Virus record (IMG/VR): IMGVR_UViG_2565956633_000005
Coordinates: 1 to 42,184 of that record
DNA: 42,184 nt
Strand: one strand, 5' to 3'
Source of the DNA: a virus
Lineage: Duplodnaviria; Heunggongvirae; Uroviricota; Caudoviricetes
Below, piece by piece: positions 21,856 to 39,350 of this stretch. The notes under the pieces are model-generated. The model saw nothing but the letters and a program-made list of their open reading frames with translations. It ran no database searches and was not told where the DNA came from. Each line of letters opens with the position of its first letter. Position 1 is the first letter of the stretch. Both the position numbers and the translations under genes were made by a program.

Positions 21856-22262
21856 AGCCTCACCTCCGATTTTTCGGATGGCGCTGTGTGTGTTTGAAAA
21901 GGGTCAGGCTTCACGGGCTGGATTTATCAACAAAGCACGTAGCGGATGATTCCCGTGAGCCTGAAATTGATGAATATGTCTGAAATAACTAGACCATTAG
22001 TAAAACAACTCGATAAATGTGGTTAAATGAGACTACGTTCTCACAACTTAATTAGTACCAATGATTATCAAGCCCTGCCCCTACTGCGGAAAGTTAATTA
22101 ACCCAGAATCACTTGTGTGTAGCCACTGCCGGATAGTGAATCCTTTTGTGAAGGCCAGCAGAAGAGAAAAAGCGAAGAATGTATTAGTAATCGCTCTCGT
22201 TGCTGCTTTTTTAATTTGGATGATTCTCTGAGTTGCCAGTTTTCAATGAAGATAATGCGGGC

Positions 22263-22289
22263 AAAAAAAGCCTGCTCGGACGAACAGGC
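22263..22289 (-). terminator. intrinsic terminator candidate
   Basis: Minus-strand hairpin GCCTG-N10-CAGGC followed by U7 (plus A-run 22263-22269). Confidence 0.45.
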
Positions 22290-22706
22290 ATGAAAAATAA
22301 CAATACCGTCAAGGAGGTGGCGCCGGGTGCCTCCCGGTGGAACAGCCCCAGCCGACTAGTTCCGCGCAAACAAACCTGGACAAAAAAGTTTGACTGGACG
22401 CCCCGCCGCATAGGGGGATTCACCACGAACCAAAAGATAAAATCATCCGGTGACCGGGGCAATATCTAACCGGAACTTTTCAGAATCACTTATTGTTTCC
22501 TGGAGAGTACATGAGCGTTGGTGAATTCACGTGATGCTTTTGGATGAGCGCTGAACCCAAAGGTCAGTATTTTCACACAGCAATTTTGCAAAAAGCAGCG
22601 CCCATTCAAAACCAGGTCGCTTTCCAGTCACTCCGGGGAACCCATCATCGCAGACTGGAAAGCTTTTACTGGAGCGGGCAAAGGAATCGAACCTCTGACG
22701 CGCAGC

Positions 22707-23167: not shown

Positions 23168-23242
23168 TGGCGGGACAGGAAGGATTCGAACCTTCGACCA
23201 TTCGGTTAACAGCCGAACGCACAACCGCTGTGCTTCTGACCC
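23168..23242 (-). tRNA. tRNA-Asn (anticodon GTT)
   Basis: Hand-folded cloverleaf: T arm GAAGG-TTCGAAT-CCTTC, anticodon loop CTGTTAA, G73 discriminator, encoded CCA; deviations A8 and a U-U mismatch in the acceptor stem. Confidence 0.6.
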
Positions 23243-23249
23243 TGAAATG

Positions 23250-23275
23250 AAAAAGCCCCGCACGATGGCGAGGCT
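23250..23275 (-). terminator. hairpin plus U5 between late promoter candidate and tRNA
   Basis: 8-bp stem with one mismatch, then UUUUU on minus-strand transcript. Confidence 0.3.
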
Positions 23276-23328
23276 CTTAATTCTTTGTCGACCTACGAAG
23301 CTATGGCGACGATATCATATTTACATGA

Positions 23329-30124: not shown

Positions 30125-30670
30125 TCATATAACCCCCAGCATCGATGTAACCATCGTCATCAGCGGTCCTACCTGCTCCGGCATGAGGCGGAACAGCGAC
30201 GCTATACCCTCGCTTACCTCTTTGAGCTTCTGATGCTCTGGAGCGTCCAGCAGCACGGCCTGTTTAGCCTCGGCACACTCTTTCATCGCAGAGGCGATCA
30301 GCGACATCGTGTCGTTCTGCGGCGCCAGACGGTTTCGGTACTCCAGCGGCAGGACCGACATGATTGCCGGGGCCAGCTGGCGAATGTTGTTGGCGGCGTA
30401 TTCGGTATCGCCATCAATCCATCGAAACACTTTCTGCATCTGGCGGTGCGAGTCAGTCTGGATATCCAGACCGGTTCCGCCGGACGCCCGCCACTCTTCC
30501 ACGATCAGCGCGGCGACAAATTCACGACTGCGGCAATCAGCTGCCCAGGCGCGTACTGCTGCGCGGATCCCATCGATATTTAACGCCGAGGATTCTCGCT
30601 CCCGGCGATTCTGGTAAATCATCGCCGCTGGCGAAAATTTGTTACCTTGTTGATACGCAAGTGAATGCAT
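30125..30670 (-). CDS. hypothetical regulator in the cII position (possibly YdaT-like)
   Basis: 181-aa ORF between cro-like gene and O; assignment uncertain. Confidence 0.4.
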   Translation of the reverse strand: MHSLAYQQGNKFSPAAMIYQNRRERESSALNIDGIRAAVRAWAADCRSREFVAALIVEEWRASGGTGLDIQTDSHRQMQKVFRWIDGDTEYAANNIRQLAPAIMSVLPLEYRNRLAPQNDTMSLIASAMKECAEAKQAVLLDAPEHQKLKEVSEGIASLFRLMPEQVGPLMTMVTSMLGVI

Positions 30671-30946: not shown

Positions 30947-31030
30947 AGTGTTTTCCGTTAACTATATTAACTACGAGTTAAGGTTATATCTTAACTGACA
31001 GTTATGTCAACTCTAATTGATAATTAACAC
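30947..31030. promoter_or_regulatory. OR-like operator region with divergent pR/pRM candidates
   Basis: 21-bp palindrome AGTTAAG-N7-CTTAACT (30976-30996); minus-strand pR TTGACA-16-TATAAC; plus-strand pRM CTGACA-16-GATAAT ending 8 nt before cI ATG. Confidence 0.5.
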
Positions 31031-31798
31031 ATGGTTAAAAAAGACGATTTAAAAGAAGAATTCTCGAAGAGACTTCGCGCTGCATTGCTTGATGCTGGCG
31101 TGGGTGGGCGTGGGCAGGCTGGCAGGATCAGGGAAGCTATGAAGTCCCAAGGGATTGCTGTATCTGAGCCCGGGATCTGGAAGTGGCTTAACGCATCAGC
31201 AATACCAGACCAAACCAATATCCTTGCACTTAGCCGCTGGCTTGGGGTTCGCCCTGAGTGGCTGGAATACGGAAGGAATGATCCTGAACCTGAACTGCAC
31301 AGGGTATCATCCATCCCGCCTGAATCTGAGTGGGGAACTGTCGACGCTTGGGACAAAAATACCCCCCTACCTGACGATGAGGTGGAAGTACCGTTTCTGA
31401 AGGATATCGAGTTTGCGTGTGGTGATGGGCGTGTTCATAGCGAAGATCATAACGGCTTTAAACTGAGGTTCTCCAAGGCAACGCTCAGAAGGGTGGGTGC
31501 AAATAGTGATGGTTCTGGAGTGCTTTGCTTTCCCGCTTCTGGTGACAGCATGGAGCCCGTTATTCCTGACGGCGCAACGGTAGCAGTCGATACAGGCAAC
31601 AAGCGGATTATTGACGGCGAACTCTATGCTATTAACCAGGGCGATTTAAAGCGCATAAAGCAGCTTTATCGAAAGCCTGGTGGGAAGCTATTAATACGAA
31701 GCATCAATCGCGATTATGACGATGAAGAGGCTGATGAGGCAGATGTCGAGATAATCGGTTTTGTGTTCTGGTACTCGGTATTGCGATATCGCCGATAA
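31031..31798 (+). CDS. cI: CI-like repressor (HTH plus S24 LexA-like autopeptidase domain)
   Basis: 255 aa; C-terminal GDSMEPVIPDGATVAV...K motif. Confidence 0.8.
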   Translation: MVKKDDLKEEFSKRLRAALLDAGVGGRGQAGRIREAMKSQGIAVSEPGIWKWLNASAIPDQTNILALSRWLGVRPEWLEYGRNDPEPELHRVSSIPPESEWGTVDAWDKNTPLPDDEVEVPFLKDIEFACGDGRVHSEDHNGFKLRFSKATLRRVGANSDGSGVLCFPASGDSMEPVIPDGATVAVDTGNKRIIDGELYAINQGDLKRIKQLYRKPGGKLLIRSINRDYDDEEADEADVEIIGFVFWYSVLRYRR

Positions 31799-31803
31799 TT
31801 TTA

Positions 31804-31916
31804 GTGGCCTGAAGAGACGTTTGGGTGATAAGAGAATATCTGATAGTAGGCGTGGTTACTTTGCTCTCGGTTGTTGCGATCGTGCTTATGGTGGCCTGAT
31901 GAGACGTTTGGGTGAT
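31804..31916. repeat. 27-bp direct repeat pair
   Basis: GTGGCCTGA(A/T)GAGACGTTTGGGTGAT at 31804-31830 and 31890-31916, one mismatch. Confidence 0.6.
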
Positions 31917-32064
31917 GGGCAAGGTGTTCTGGTCGGCGCATAGCTGGTGAAAAAATTATTTAATGCGGTGTATTGGCTGATTGTAACCCCATGTAACATC
32001 TTGCCGTCACCATTTCGGTGGTTAGATTTTTAATAAAAAAAACAAATGTATAGCAAGGTTTTTT

Positions 32065-32544
32065 ATGGATAAAATTAATTACCCACCCCTGTTTGAGCCA
32101 GGGCTCCATGACATGGATGAAGCTGGATTAAAATCGTATTGTGTCGATTGCTTTCCTTCATCATCCAGGCGAGGCATGCTATACTGTAATTTTATACAGC
32201 TACTCGAATCTATTCGAGAATTATCTGCTCAATATGGCTGTTTTACAGAAATATGGGTTGATGGTTCATACACCACGTCTAAACCAGAGCCTGATGATAT
32301 TGATATTTTGTTGGTATGTGACTATAGCAATATAAACTCAATACCTGTCATGCTTCGGGGCCGCGTCGATAATTTGCTTGACCGAAACTACATCAAACAA
32401 AACTACAAAATTGATGTCCTACTACTCATGAAGAATTTAGATGACCCTAACTATGATTATGAGTACTGGCGTAGCTACTGGCGCGGTTGGTTTGGTTTTG
32501 ATCGCAGTGAAAACCCGAAAGGGTTAGTGAGGATTTTTTTATGA
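32065..32544 (+). CDS. minimal nucleotidyltransferase-like protein (Pol-beta superfamily signature)
   Basis: 159 aa; AAGG RBS; EIWVDGSYTTSKPEPDDIDILLV fits hG[GS]x9-13Dx[DE]; later KIDVLLL acidic strand; AT-rich. Confidence 0.55.
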   Translation: MDKINYPPLFEPGLHDMDEAGLKSYCVDCFPSSSRRGMLYCNFIQLLESIRELSAQYGCFTEIWVDGSYTTSKPEPDDIDILLVCDYSNINSIPVMLRGRVDNLLDRNYIKQNYKIDVLLLMKNLDDPNYDYEYWRSYWRGWFGFDRSENPKGLVRIFL

Positions 32545-33473
32545 ATGATAAATCAATGTTTAAAAATTGCGATAAACGCATTGATTTCATTCAAAAAGAA
32601 GTCGATGCAATGAAGCAAAACAAAACCAGGTCCTTTGCTGACATGCTTCTTTATCGCTCCATGGATTCTCATCTGAGCGATTTGAAGGCCGAAAAATTAA
32701 AGCAAGATAGTCGGCACCCACTTATCGATTTTTTTGAGCTGCGGCTGAAAGGCTCTGAGGTTGACTTTGGCTCTATTCCTTTAGAGCTGCTTGGGGCTAT
32801 TTCAACAAATCTTGCAGCGCTAATACAAAGAGCAACACACAAAATTGCCTCAGGCAAGGACTCAAAAAAAGTTCCCTACGACGTGAAAAGCTCCTTAAAC
32901 CTCAGGCTGGCTGATTTATCCCCTGGGTCTACAAAATTGGGCGTCACCTTCTCTACAGGAATAGCAGAATTAGTAGAAACAGTACCCAGCAAGGCTGTAA
33001 AAGGCATATTCGATTTGTTGTTAAGCGATGACGACAACAACTTCATGAATCACGTCGCTGAAATTGGATACAATTCCACTGTAAGCCTTAAGAGAATCGT
33101 AGAGGAATGCGATAAACACAACTTAACATTTGATGCAAGTTGGACCGGTCCATTTAGTAATGGCACCAAGGTGGCAACTATTGACTCCAATAAAATTAAG
33201 TACTTGGTGAGTAGACTTACATCAACCATTTCATCCCCTCCCATTACTGAAACGGTTACAGGCGAACTGGTCGTTCTATCCAAATATGGGAAGCTGGAGC
33301 TTGATGTTGGTGGTGAACATTTAAAGGCTTCCTATCCGATTGAAATGCTAGATTTAATACAAAAAAAACACAAGGTCGGACAGATTGTTTCTCTTTTAGT
33401 GGAGACTACTGAGATTCACAATGATCGCATAGGTCTGTACCGTAAAAACCATCTTGTTAAATCGGTTCTTTAA
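32541..33473 (+). CDS. hypothetical protein, partner of NTase-like gene
   Basis: 310 aa; ATGA overlap with upstream gene; GTGAGGA RBS; no recognisable motif. Confidence 0.55.
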   Translation: MNDKSMFKNCDKRIDFIQKEVDAMKQNKTRSFADMLLYRSMDSHLSDLKAEKLKQDSRHPLIDFFELRLKGSEVDFGSIPLELLGAISTNLAALIQRATHKIASGKDSKKVPYDVKSSLNLRLADLSPGSTKLGVTFSTGIAELVETVPSKAVKGIFDLLLSDDDNNFMNHVAEIGYNSTVSLKRIVEECDKHNLTFDASWTGPFSNGTKVATIDSNKIKYLVSRLTSTISSPPITETVTGELVVLSKYGKLELDVGGEHLKASYPIEMLDLIQKKHKVGQIVSLLVETTEIHNDRIGLYRKNHLVKSVL

Positions 33474-33480
33474 TATCTCA

Positions 33481-33504
33481 CCCGGCCACCGCGCCGGGTT
33501 TTTT
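33481..33504 (+). terminator. intrinsic terminator
   Basis: CCCGGC-CACCGC-GCCGGG hairpin followed by TTTTTT. Confidence 0.65.
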
Positions 33505-33588
33505 ATTGCCCACCCATAAAGCCATCCTCCATTCTGCCGATAACTATCCAGCCTGAAGCTGATAACAATAACTATCGCAACACTACCT

Positions 33589-33610
33589 GCCCGCCCGTGC
33601 GGGCTTTTTT
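33589..33610 (+). terminator. intrinsic terminator
   Basis: GCCCGC-CCGT-GCGGGC hairpin followed by TTTTTT. Confidence 0.6.
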
Positions 33611-33806
33611 ATTGTCCTTTCCGCACTATCTCAGCTGCATCCCTGTTCACACCCTTACCTATCACGTTTCCCGTTTCCTTCCGGTACCGTTCCAGCTTGT
33701 CGATGATGTTTTGCTGGGTCATAGGTAAATCTGCCAGTGACAACTCCATGACCGCCCGCCCCATGGCGTGAACCATCATGTTCACTCTTTCTTCATTCAA
33801 GCCCAT
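33609..33806 (-). CDS. small hypothetical protein (65 aa)
   Basis: ATG at 33804-33806 with AGGAG RBS; isolated on minus strand. Confidence 0.45.
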   Translation of the reverse strand: MGLNEERVNMMVHAMGRAVMELSLADLPMTQQNIIDKLERYRKETGNVIGKGVNRDAAEIVRKGQ

Positions 33807-33928: not shown

Positions 33929-33957
33929 TTGACTGAAAATAACCATTAGTTAATAAT
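33929..33957 (+). promoter_or_regulatory. candidate pL-like promoter with operator-like repeats
   Basis: TTGACT-16 nt-TAATAA(T); embedded in TAACCA/TGGTTA repeats including palindrome TAACCATTGGTTA (33916-33928) and TAATTAAC shared with OR. Confidence 0.35.
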
Positions 33958-35820: not shown

Positions 35821-35960
35821 GCGAAAGCCCACCGAAGTGGGCCCGCCATGTCCGGCCTCACCGACCAAAGTTACACCGGAAACAACATTAAAACCAAAGT
35901 TAACCCAATGGGCGCTATCAATGGTCCGGGGATTCTAACACCCAAAAATGAGGATCTCAC

Positions 35961-38900
35961 ATGGAATTCTTTAATGTGGTTAAAGCCACTCAGAAATCCG
36001 GAAAGCAAGATGCAGTGGTCTGGTTCACTGCTAAAACCGAGGCTCGCGCCAATCTGATGCTGGATGTTGCGCTGGAAGATGCAGGTATCGAAACAGGTCG
36101 GGGTAAGGACTACGCCAAACCGATTCGCACTGATTTCCCAGTTGTCGACGGCCTGCCGAAAGAAGGTGAAGTTGATTTTACCTGGTGTGATCGCTACGAG
36201 CTTCAGGACGATGGGCGCACCTGGCTGCCAAAAGCCGCTGGTGTGTCTACTGGTTCCGTTGACGCCCCCTACACACCTACTCCGACCGTAATCGTTGAAG
36301 ATGCGACTGCGTCCGAAATTGTCCCGGTTGAAAACCGTACTCCAGCGGTCCGCTTTGCCGTCCATCTGATGAACGATAAATACCAAACCCACGTCACTAA
36401 AGAGCAGCAGTTGGCTGCCAGCGAAATGTCACTGGATGAAGGCAATACATATCTCCATAGCCTGCTTGTGGCAAGGAACGATGTGCCCGCGACCGCCAAA
36501 CTCAGCCTGAATGCTGAGTGGAAAATGATTCGGGCGGTTAAGGACATTTTCACACCCGACGAAGAGCACGAACCAAGATTGATCGCTGCATTCATGTCTG
36601 ACTGGGTGAACACCGATGCCGGTGACCGCAATCAACTGGTAGAAGACTGGCGCAGTGGTAAGTTGCAGTTGCTCAAAACTGAAACCAGCAACGCTGCTGA
36701 CGTTACAACGGGTCAAGATCTCACTGTTGAGGACGGTATCCAGACCGACGAGAACGGCCGGGCAGAAGGTGGCGTCGTTGATGGTGAAGTCGATACCGAA
36801 GAGCAATCCCAGCAGACACAGCAACCGAACCTGATCGTTGTTGCCACCCTGCCATTCCGCCAGCGCGTACTGGCTCAGTTCATCGGTGATGGTGAATATC
36901 TCTATCACATCGACGCAGGGCAGAAAAATGAGATTGTCCGCCTTGAGATGGACACCGATGACGCGTACGTCCAGAACCTGCTGCTGGCAGCTGAGAATGT
37001 GGAAGCATTCAAAAAAGCCATTGAGCACGATATTCATAAAGTCGTGAATGCCGTTAAGAAAGTCTTCCCTGTCGATGGAAAAATCCCTGAACTCGCAACC
37101 TTAATCCAGTTTTTGAAATTGTGGTTCGCTACAGATCACATCGACCGCGGTATCCTCGTTCGCGAATGGGCCGCCGGTAATCGCATCAGTAGTGTGCAGC
37201 GTACTGATTCCGGAACCAATGCCAACGGCGGTTACGTCACTGACCGTGGACCTGATACATACCATACCCTTGACACTCTCGATTTAGAGATTGCATGTGC
37301 CCTTCTGCCTATGGACTTCAACCACTTCGAGATCCCGGGCAGCATTCTTCGTCGCGCTAAAGAAATCGTGACCAAAAAAGAAGAACCATGGAAATCATGG
37401 AGCAACATCCTGCGCAATCAGCCAGGCGTTCTGGGTGTTAACCGCACGGCTATTTTTAACCTGGTACGTATCGCACCGGAAAATATTCATTTAACTCCTG
37501 TCGCTCACCTGGAATTTGTTAACCAGACCATGACAGCCGCGTTCAATTCCGCGGTCGAGTTATTGCCGTTGCATGAGGCTGAACCCGCAGCACAGGAAAT
37601 TCCCCAACCTGAAGGTAAGGAGTCTCCGCGCAAATCCTTCTGCACTCACGAAGAGAACCTGCAACGCGTGCGTGAAGAAGGAGCACGCCGCCGCGCAGAG
37701 GAAGCGGCAGCACAACCGCAGAAAGTCGAACAAGAACTGGTTAAAAATGTCGGCAACGGAATATTCGACGTTACGGCTTTGCTGCAGAACTCAGCAACTC
37801 ATGGCACGAAAAAGGCTACGGAGACCACCAGCAATGTGCAGGTTCAAGAAACTGTCAGTGATGAAAAACAAGCTGGTGATGAAGTACAGCCAGGCGAAAG
37901 CAGTCTGGAGTCTGGTGAAGAGTCAGATACCAGCCAGAAGGACGATGTAAACCAGAATACGGATTCTGTCGCCAAAAATAGCGATTCTGTAAGCCAAACC
38001 GAACCAGTTGCAGCACAAACCGAGCCAGAAGCGCAATCTGACGAACCGGCTGTTGTTTATCCCGCTTATTTCGAGCCAGGCCGCTATGAAGGGCTGCCAA
38101 ACGAGGTTTACCACGCCGCCAACGGCATCAGCTCAACCCAGGTGAAAGATGCGCGCGTTTCGCTGATGTACTTCAATGCGCGCCACGTAGAGAAAACCAT
38201 CGTCAAAGAGCGCTCAGCGGTGCTGGACATGGGCAACTTGGTGCATGCGCTGGCGTTGCAGCCTGAACTACTGGACGCAGAATTCAGCGTTGAACCGGTG
38301 ATCCCTGAAGGCGCATTCACAACGGCCGCGACCCTGCGCGCCTTTATCGATGAGCACAATGCCAGCCTGCCGGCGCTGCTGTCTGCCGACGACATCAAGG
38401 TGTTACTGGAAGAGTACAACGCCACCCTGCCGCCGCAGGTTCCGCTTGGCGCTAACCTGGAAGAAACGGCACAGAACTATATGGCGCTGCCAGCTGACTT
38501 CCAGCGTATTGATGGTGACCAGAAGCAGACGGCGACGGCAATGAAGGCATGCATTAAAGAGTACAACGCCACCCTGCCGCCGCCGGTTAAAACCAGCGGC
38601 AGCCGTGACGCGCTGCTGGAGCAGTTGGCAATCATCAACCCTGACCTTGTGGCTCAGGAAGCACAGAAACCGGCACCACTGAAAGTGTCCGGTACCAAAG
38701 CAGACATGATCCAGGCCGTGAAGGCAGTCAAACCAGATGCCGTATTTGCCGACGAACTGCTGGATGCCTGGCGCGATAACCCGGAAGGAAAAGTGCTGGT
38801 CACCCGCCAGCAGCTGAGCACCGCGCTGAATATTCAAAAAGCGCTTCTGGCACACCCGACCGCCGGCATGCTGCTGACCCACCCTAGCCGAGCCGTTGAG

Positions 38901-39350
38901 GTGAGCTACTTTGGTTTTGACGAGGAGACGGGCTTGGAAGTTCGTGTGCGCCCTGACCTTGAGATCGACCTGGATGGCGTGCGTATAGGTGCAGACCTGA
39001 AAACCATCAGCATGTGGAATGTTAAGCAGGAAAGCCTGCGCGCCAGGCTACACCGGGAAATTATTGAACGTGATTATCACCTGAGCGCGGCTATGTACTG
39101 CGAAACCGCAGCGCTGGATCAGTTCTTCTGGATTTTCGTCAACAAAGACGAGAACTACCACTGGATCGCCATCATCGAGGCATCCGCTGAACTACTGGAG
39201 CTGGGTATGCTCGAGTACCGCAAAGCGATGCGCAATATCGCAACCGGATTCGACACAGGTGAATGGCCAGCGCCAATCACTGCTGACTACACCGACGAAC
39301 TGAACGACTTCGACCTGCGCCGCCTTGAAGCGCTGCGTACTCAGGCATAA
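35961..39350 (+). CDS. recE: large RecE-like exonuclease (putative exodeoxyribonuclease VIII-type)
   Basis: 1129-aa ORF with TGAGGA RBS directly upstream of RecT-like gene; nuclease assignment by synteny, tentative. Confidence 0.5.
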   Translation: MEFFNVVKATQKSGKQDAVVWFTAKTEARANLMLDVALEDAGIETGRGKDYAKPIRTDFPVVDGLPKEGEVDFTWCDRYELQDDGRTWLPKAAGVSTGSVDAPYTPTPTVIVEDATASEIVPVENRTPAVRFAVHLMNDKYQTHVTKEQQLAASEMSLDEGNTYLHSLLVARNDVPATAKLSLNAEWKMIRAVKDIFTPDEEHEPRLIAAFMSDWVNTDAGDRNQLVEDWRSGKLQLLKTETSNAADVTTGQDLTVEDGIQTDENGRAEGGVVDGEVDTEEQSQQTQQPNLIVVATLPFRQRVLAQFIGDGEYLYHIDAGQKNEIVRLEMDTDDAYVQNLLLAAENVEAFKKAIEHDIHKVVNAVKKVFPVDGKIPELATLIQFLKLWFATDHIDRGILVREWAAGNRISSVQRTDSGTNANGGYVTDRGPDTYHTLDTLDLEIACALLPMDFNHFEIPGSILRRAKEIVTKKEEPWKSWSNILRNQPGVLGVNRTAIFNLVRIAPENIHLTPVAHLEFVNQTMTAAFNSAVELLPLHEAEPAAQEIPQPEGKESPRKSFCTHEENLQRVREEGARRRAEEAAAQPQKVEQELVKNVGNGIFDVTALLQNSATHGTKKATETTSNVQVQETVSDEKQAGDEVQPGESSLESGEESDTSQKDDVNQNTDSVAKNSDSVSQTEPVAAQTEPEAQSDEPAVVYPAYFEPGRYEGLPNEVYHAANGISSTQVKDARVSLMYFNARHVEKTIVKERSAVLDMGNLVHALALQPELLDAEFSVEPVIPEGAFTTAATLRAFIDEHNASLPALLSADDIKVLLEEYNATLPPQVPLGANLEETAQNYMALPADFQRIDGDQKQTATAMKACIKEYNATLPPPVKTSGSRDALLEQLAIINPDLVAQEAQKPAPLKVSGTKADMIQAVKAVKPDAVFADELLDAWRDNPEGKVLVTRQQLSTALNIQKALLAHPTAGMLLTHPSRAVEVSYFGFDEETGLEVRVRPDLEIDLDGVRIGADLKTISMWNVKQESLRARLHREIIERDYHLSAAMYCETAALDQFFWIFVNKDENYHWIAIIEASAELLELGMLEYRKAMRNIATGFDTGEWPAPITADYTDELNDFDLRRLEALRTQA

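Follow-up and report, generated by a model that had tools for sequence, protein, structure and literature searches.

A two-gene cassette of a DUF6932 nucleotidyltransferase and a predicted OB-fold partner in the rexAB position of a lambdoid prophage, a catalogued candidate conflict module

We analyzed a 42,184-nucleotide (nt) stretch of Caudoviricetes DNA (IMG/VR record IMGVR_UViG_2565956633_000005, taken at its full length and hereafter called the window), concentrating on two genes, A and B, that lie next downstream of its cI-type repressor gene. Gene A (32065–32544) encodes a protein of 159 amino acids (aa) and gene B (32541–33473) a protein of 310 aa; both are on the plus strand, both start with ATG, and they are joined by a 4-nt ATGA overlap. 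By our reading of the sequence, Shine-Dalgarno-like sequences, AAGG for gene A and GAGGA for gene B, are found 8–9 nt before the respective starts. The original prediction for this locus, made from the letters alone, had described two overlapping plus-strand genes, each with its own ribosome-binding site, and the coordinates and sites are present, as are the three peptides it quoted from the translations (EIWVDGSYTTSKPEPDDIDILLV, KIDVLLL, and RSMDSH). It had also called the pair visibly AT-richer than the neighboring phage DNA. A windowed GC analysis agreed: the GC fraction is 0.398 in gene A, 0.405 in gene B, and 40.3% over the pair, compared to 50–54% in the two 5-kb flanks (0.537 and 0.503) and 0.519 in the window as a whole. 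The pair is the lowest-GC 1.4-kb stretch of the 42-kb window, with 0.4% of all 1409-nt segments being as AT-rich, every one of them overlapping the locus.

The left border of the slot that holds the pair is the repressor gene itself (31031–31798, plus strand), whose product has a weak helix-turn-helix match and an S24 autopeptidase domain (Pfam Peptidase_S24, E = 5.2e-19), making it an S24/LexA-type repressor; its C-terminal part is ~91% identical to phi80-type cI. The pair had been placed immediately downstream of cI, and it is indeed the next feature downstream, but not an immediate neighbor, as 266 nt separate the cI stop codon from the start of gene A. A consensus scan identified a PRM-like promoter (CTGACA-18-GATAAT, 30995–31024, plus strand) that scores 10/12 and ends 6 nt before the cI ATG, and a PL-like promoter (TTGACT-17-AATAAT, 33929–33957, plus strand) that forms the right border of the slot. 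The plus-strand early genes that follow the PL-like promoter resemble those of HK225, mEp237, and phi80, and the divergent cro/YdaT/O/P genes are on the strand opposite to the A-B pair. With the PRM-like promoter abutting cI and the PL-like promoter on the same strand, the pair therefore lies between cI and PL, which is the rexAB position of lambda. The window as a whole is a phi80/HK225/mEp237-like lambdoid prophage. By analogy with lambda PRM, the PRM-like promoter likely drives cI in the lysogen and may also supply transcripts to the cassette.

Two intrinsic terminators had been predicted after gene B, and both were found on the plus strand. Terminator 1 (33480–33509) begins 7 nt past the gene B stop codon and has a 7-bp stem (33480–33499) with six G-C pairs, whereas terminator 2 (33589–33614, stem 33589–33604), also with six G-C pairs, is a back-up stop before the PL region; each stem is followed by a T run (TTTTTATT and TTTTTTATT, respectively). 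For scale, the scan returned 8 terminator-like sites in the 4-kb region, compared to 4.2 ± 1.8 in shuffled sequences.

The slot next to the repressor had been described as a hotspot for lysogen-expressed exclusion or abortive-infection systems, and related prophages do carry different genes there, such as rexAB (lambda), a DUF7946 protein (phi80), and a hypothetical protein with a YafO-family toxin (E. coli CX15). In the CX15 prophage (L084:2725–3719) the hypothetical protein is 194 aa long, and this cargo further suggests that the slot gathers toxin-type or exclusion-type genes. In the phi80 prophage of E. coli EPI300 (L083:2124–2990) the slot holds the 288-aa DUF7946 'protein 40A' (Pfam PF25678 and PF25679), which has a weak match to PADLOC PDC-S42.

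Protein A belongs to Pfam DUF6932 (E = 1.7e-24) and matches the PADLOC profile PDC-M63A (PDLC04744, E = 4.2e-41), with residues 1–158 aligned to positions 1–148 of the 152-position profile. The Pol-beta nucleotidyltransferase (NTase) signature predicted for it was borne out by both conservation and modeled structure. Among 44 homologs, with identities down to 34%, G67, S68, D78, and D80 never vary and D117 hardly does, and these residues occupy the hG[GS], [DE]h[DE]h (D78-I-D80), and third-carboxylate positions of Pol-beta NTases. The AlphaFold2 (AF2) model of protein A, with a predicted local distance difference test score (pLDDT) of 95.8, has the alpha/beta core fold of NTases, and its good Foldseek matches are Pol-beta NTases only, with minimal NTases, MntA, and HI0073 at the top; CdnB and CdnC match through the shared core alone. 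A family-specific C-terminal motif is conserved as well (R136-SYWRGWFGF-x-R-x-E149, followed by K152-G153). We conclude that gene A, by conservation and predicted fold, encodes a minimal Pol-beta NTase with its catalytic carboxylates all intact, and that the protein is probably active as a nucleotidyltransferase. Neither DUF6932 nor the two RefSeq protein accessions turned up anything in searches of the literature.

Protein B was said to have no recognizable catalytic signature, and nothing significant was returned for it by sequence-profile searches of Pfam, NCBIfam, and PDB. It matches the PADLOC profile PDC-M63B (PDLC04749, 309 positions, E = 7.5e-45) over residues 23–304, the only other PADLOC matches being weak partial ones to PDC-M32A (3e-5) and DrmC (0.004), and its family forms 266 clusters at 50% identity, nearly all with lengths of 300–320 aa. 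The AF2 model of protein B (pLDDT 76.6 overall and 84–92 over residues 210–310) begins with a helical hairpin of two long helices (~10–56), continues with an alpha/beta middle part (~63–231), and ends in an oligonucleotide/oligosaccharide-binding (OB) fold (~235–309), a beta1-3/alpha/beta4-5 barrel. The top structural matches of this OB fold include RuvA, SSB, and PriB, and its conserved residues include aromatics (265 and 304) and basic residues (251 and 301). Protein B is a probable nucleic-acid-binding partner of protein A. The sole residues invariant across 68 diverse members of the B family, G129-S130, are in a low-confidence loop.

We also considered a HEPN reading of the RSMDSH peptide, an R-x4-H motif that the original prediction had itself called non-diagnostic. 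This reading was ruled out, as the Arg varies (R/D/N/S) even within Enterobacterales; protein B and 68 relatives gave zero HEPN matches in Pfam, with AbiU2 marginal at 0.005 in one member. Separately, an N-terminal motif of phi80 protein 40A is similar to residues 65–90 of the gene B product, and an hhalign comparison of the middle part of protein B to this DUF7946 protein gave a weak score (probability 21%, E = 1e-3).

The two genes are closely linked. By scanning a DUF6932 alignment against one genome per species, we found 80 loci, in Proteobacteria, Bacteroidota, Firmicutes, Nitrospirae, Planctomycetota, Verrucomicrobia, Chloroflexi, Acidobacteria, and Parcubacteria. At 71 of these 80 loci, a B-family ORF (open reading frame) on the same strand starts ~-10 to +40 nt from the end of gene A. 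In IMG/VR, each of the 54 viral contigs with a B homolog (46–100% identity) has gene A directly upstream. When 110 A-B pairs were compared, 96 overlapped, 74 of them by 4 nt, and 109 were either overlapping or near-adjacent (0–20 nt), an arrangement consistent with translational coupling. The two genes have also diverged in parallel: pairwise distances of A and of B across the 110 pairs are correlated with r = 0.92, part of which is explained by shared phylogeny. A few genomes carry an orphan gene A without the partner (L055, L062). Taken across these genomes, A followed by B is a strict and ancient module found in many phyla.

The position next to the repressor is also widely shared. Of the 54 viral contigs, 46 have a same-strand cI-like ORF no more than 1 kb upstream, and the cI-adjacent position is therefore kept even in cassettes only 46% identical. 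In temperate Enterobacterales phages, the pair almost always comes after cI, in the same orientation, with terminators at its end.

At five Bacteroidota loci (L058:2719–9026, L065:2759–9044, L071:446–6533, L072:1690–9023, and L068:660–3685), the gene following DUF6932 encodes, in place of B, a protein of 852–860 aa. These proteins have ResIII, Helicase_C, and EcoEI_R_C domains and match PADLOC models of type I restriction endonucleases (1e-45 to 1e-52). They are preceded by N6_Mtase and Methylase_S genes, which form a single HsdM-HsdS ORF at least in L065 and L071, and the DUF6932 gene is thus placed inside a type I restriction-modification operon, with the HsdM/HsdS genes on one side and the HsdR-like gene on the other. 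The N-terminal hairpin of protein B has a homolog in the first ~60 aa of the HsdR-like proteins (hhalign probability 94.9%, E = 4.5e-8), and the hairpin is thus a portable module that accompanies the DUF6932 enzyme and can be joined to different nucleic-acid-acting proteins. The variant architecture, in sharing the hairpin, points to a physical coupling of A and its partner, and the hairpin may be the docking element for protein A. The Bacteroidota arrangement may represent enzymatic control of a restriction subunit.

The spacer between cI and gene A bears on how the cassette reached this prophage. Its first part (31799–31948) contains a direct repeat, and in frame 0 both copies encode a lambda-type repressor C-terminus followed by a stop codon, leaving two fossil cI 3' ends on the plus strand, WPEETFG-stop (31805–31828) and WPDETFG-stop (31888–31914). 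Positions 31799–31915 are 98% identical to phi80, whereas from 31891 on the DNA is 99.6% identical to phage mEpX1, whose cassette follows another cI; positions 31891–31948 match the lambda cI 3' end (lambda 37196–37251). In E. coli G3/10, a 100% identical cassette follows an S24-family repressor (236 aa in RefSeq), and the early region of that prophage is different. Among 5426 complete E. coli genomes, 18 (0.3%) carry the cassette at ≥ 99% identity; the DNA in mEpX1 and these 18 genomes is the same at 99.6–100% identity, and the cI contexts found upstream of the cassette in various prophages are of at least three kinds. From the matches to phi80, mEpX1, lambda, and G3/10, it therefore follows that the cassette was recently swapped among lambdoid phages via the conserved cI 3' end. 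The spacer itself is a recombination scar, with the fossils marking successive cassette exchanges at that conserved end. We conclude that the cassette is real, well delimited, and horizontally acquired.

We had considered a hammerhead-type RNA motif for the spacer repeat, GGCCTGA(A/T)GAGACGTTTGGGTGA containing CTGATGAG. This reading was dropped because the copies translate to WP(E/D)ETFG-stop and match the phi80 and lambda cI 3' ends; Rfam, at gathering thresholds, found nothing in the spacer. Further along, 42 nt before gene A, is a weak terminator-like hairpin (32003–32022, plus strand) with six pairs, three of them G-C, followed by TTAGATTTTTA, which could act as an attenuator of cI read-through. 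A weak promoter-like sequence (TTGCCG-16-TAGATT) overlaps it. The hairpin is kept only in near-identical E. coli-type cassettes, and no shared promoter was found before gene A, as the upstream regions of divergent cassettes have in common only AT-richness and a Shine-Dalgarno sequence. The closest E. coli match to the cI-A-B region of the window is in strain KL53 (NZ_CP030919.1, 1786514–1790930); an IS4-like element, ISVsa5, is annotated inside this match, and the match to the cassette starts only at nucleotide 162 of gene A.

Several other features of the window were recorded along the way. A 65-aa ORF on the minus strand (33609–33806), convergent with the cassette and without a PADLOC match, lies between terminator 2 and the PL-like promoter, and the G3/10, phi80, and CX15 prophages each have an annotated opposite-strand ORF of ~65–69 aa at the corresponding position. 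The gene in the cII position (30125–30670, minus strand) matches 'toxin YdaT family' proteins of G3/10, EPI300, and CX15, and not lambda-type cII. In the PL operon, a 1129-aa ORF (35961–39350, plus strand) corresponds to a region annotated as RecE or exonuclease in HK225 and mEp237. Rfam and ARAGORN searches identified, all on the minus strand, STnc100 (22259–22451, 71.7 bits), tRNA-Asn (GTT) (23168–23242), isrJ (23252–23325, 65.1 bits), and, just upstream of the recE-like gene, a borderline isrB (35822–35919, 38.2 bits vs. a gathering score of 35). The STnc100, isrJ, and isrB families were described from Salmonella.

The pair had been put forward as a novel defense module, and on this point the PADLOC matches decided otherwise. 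By these full-length profile matches to both proteins, the locus is assigned to the PADLOC candidate PDC-M63. As both proteins are already in PDC-M63, the pair does not count as a new discovery and is instead a catalogued, unvalidated, guilt-by-embedding candidate. Payne et al. derived 145 such candidates (PDCs) from genes found inside BREX, DISARM, and type I restriction-modification (R-M) systems and released them untested, and the embedding of DUF6932 in type I R-M operons agrees with this origin. DefensePredictor left the PDCs out of its homology search, as they were unvalidated. In the searchable literature, PDC-M63 occurs in one work only, as a preprint and a published version (PMC12409345), and in PHROGs, proteins A and B match families 9194 and 6603, both annotated as of unknown function. 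What is new here, and provides useful leads, is the OB-fold partner and the hairpin common to HsdR-like proteins; the strict A-B pairing across phyla and the cI-following position in temperate Enterobacterales phages are likewise new.

The suggestion that the pair is unlike HepT/MntA, CBASS, and AbiE held up, with no PADLOC model of these systems matching it, as did its general resemblance to a defense or toxin-antitoxin-type cassette. MNT antitoxins nucleotidylate HEPN toxins in type VII toxin-antitoxin systems, and the A-B pair resembles these HEPN-MNT systems in that the gene for a small minimal NTase precedes and overlaps the gene for a larger partner, and in that protein A has MNT and HI0073 among its closest structural matches. 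It differs in that protein B is not a HEPN protein, its R-x4-H not being conserved and its architecture being hairpin, alpha/beta, and OB. Protein A, for its part, is a DUF6932 protein that gave no NTP_transf_2 match in a Pfam scan and has a C-terminal motif unique to the DUF6932 family. At 159 aa, protein A is also far from the ~300-aa CD-NTases of CBASS and is without their C-terminal domain. The pair shares with AbiE and MenAT the plan of a two-gene conflict module around a Pol-beta-fold NTase. However, protein A is half the size, its partner is neither a winged helix-turn-helix antitoxin nor MenA-like, no AbiE or DUF1814 match was found by PADLOC or Pfam, and the gene order is reversed relative to AbiE.

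Hailong and Clover are alike in plan to the pair, each having two genes, one for a small accessory Pol-beta NTase with the [D/E]h[D/E] motif and one for a partner with nucleic-acid or nucleotide binding. In Clover, CloB makes p3diT, which restrains the dGTPase CloA; in Hailong, the HalA channel is held in check by short DNA that HalB synthesizes. CloB and HalB, along with the MNT antitoxins, are the closest precedents for a mechanism. Protein B is neither a membrane channel like HalA nor an HD dGTPase like CloA: Pfam found no HD-domain match in it, and its model has soluble helical, alpha/beta, and OB parts, although no dedicated transmembrane predictor was used. Lambda RexAB, finally, shares with the cassette the same cI-PL slot, the cI strand, and termination before PL, and the spacer retains a lambda-type cI 3' end. 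No Rex models were among the PADLOC matches of the pair, and a direct sequence comparison to RexA and RexB was not made. We conclude that the cassette is a distinct variant of NTase-based two-gene conflict modules. Its paired, overlapping, and patchily distributed architecture is compatible with a toxin-antitoxin module.

How might such a cassette work? The model we favor, to which we give roughly an even chance in its general form, is a lysogen-expressed conflict module in which enzyme A docks on, and acts on or with, the nucleic-acid-binding partner B. The cassette would be expressed in lysogens via read-through from PRM, its own weak promoter, or both. Protein A would then dock on the hairpin of protein B and use an NTP to nucleotidylate either protein B or a nucleic acid bound on its OB fold. 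This nucleotidylation would gate a nucleic-acid-binding effector, much as an MNT antitoxin gates a HEPN toxin, and the outcome would be exclusion or abortive infection of other phages or mobile elements, stabilization of or addiction to the prophage, or both. The specific chemistry is far less certain than the general model.

A number of observations weigh against this favored model. The conserved G129-S130 of protein B could be just a structural turn, and an OB fold may have a protein or small ligand as its partner instead of a nucleic acid. The hairpins of B and of the HsdR fusions have no conserved Ser, Tyr, or His in common, so a shared modification site in the hairpin is unlikely. A weak hairpin stands between cI and gene A, where transcription in lysogens is what we infer. 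When neighbors of canonical pairs outside phages were pooled (150 ORFs, using crude ORF calls and two neighbors per side), they were mostly unrelated or housekeeping genes, with few defense genes among them. Activity, interaction, or a phenotype has been shown for none of the PDC-M63 family members, and deletion of PDC-M63AB from a prophage of E. coli NILS69 left the infectivity of 10 virulent phages unchanged (PMC12409345).

This deletion, the sole test of the family, fits a reading in which the cassette does not provide anti-phage immunity at all and instead serves the prophage itself (by regulating lysogeny or induction, by repairing or recombining DNA, or through the physiology of the host) or acts as an addiction element that is purely selfish. 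The heterogeneous contexts outside phages, which are not rich in defense genes, fit this reading too, as does the presence of DNA-metabolism proteins, RuvA, SSB, and PriB, among the top matches of the OB fold. We nonetheless consider it unlikely, because a patchy, AT-rich cassette exchanged among prophages and found in 0.3% of E. coli genomes suggests conflict cargo rather than a core function, because a variant form is embedded in type I R-M operons, and because the slot is elsewhere filled by exclusion or toxin genes.

Two other readings keep the cassette as a conflict module while assigning different roles to its proteins. If it worked like Hailong or Clover, a nucleotide or oligonucleotide made by A would sit in the OB fold of B and keep B inactive, until phage nucleases, single-stranded DNA (ssDNA)-binding proteins, or changes in the nucleotide pool stripped the ligand and released B. 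CloB and HalB, both small accessory Pol-beta NTases, work in this way in two-gene defense systems; moreover, the active site of protein A is intact, and protein B ends in an OB fold, a classic binder of ssDNA and oligonucleotides. We find this inhibitory arrangement quite improbable, as B has no recognizable channel, HD domain, nuclease, or other effector domain, and a docking hairpin common to the HsdR fusions favors direct contact over a diffusible ligand. Protein A could alternatively be the toxin, nucleotidylating tRNA or another nucleic acid, with B as its antitoxin or as a subunit that delivers the substrate. MenT and AbiEii are established NTase toxins that modify tRNA and provide a precedent, and the basic and aromatic C-terminal motif of A (RSYWRGWFGF-R-E-PKG) could bind nucleic acid. 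However, protein A has no AbiEii- or MenT-type match in PADLOC or Pfam and, at its size, is without their extra domains; the order of enzyme first and larger partner second is that of MntA-HepT and not of AbiEi-AbiEii; and an orphan A, as in L055 and L062, would be unexpected for a toxin without an antidote. Such a toxin role for A seems to us very unlikely.

Returning to the docking model, the HsdR-like variant allows a broader proposal, in which DUF6932 proteins are an uncharacterized class of regulatory nucleotidyltransferases that read a portable 60-aa hairpin and thereby control different nucleic-acid-acting effectors, the OB-fold protein in PDC-M63 and the HsdR motor-nuclease in a subset of type I restriction systems. 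We regard this as a doubtful extension. The priority of the locus for discovery is limited by its being catalogued already as PDC-M63 and by the negative outcome of the first functional test. The cassette also occupies the rexAB position of at least one cultivable E. coli phage, mEpX1, so genetics should be easy.

If active, the pair would be another NTase-centered two-gene immune or addiction module, with a partner architecture, a putative docking hairpin joined to an OB fold, unlike those of HEPN-MNT, AbiE, CBASS, Hailong, and Clover. The wiring of DUF6932 to HsdR-like subunits hints at enzymatic regulation of type I restriction. If the broader proposal for DUF6932 is true, it would add to bacterial immunity a new form of control, by hairpin-addressed nucleotidylation or nucleic-acid tailing, that includes the direct control of a restriction enzyme.

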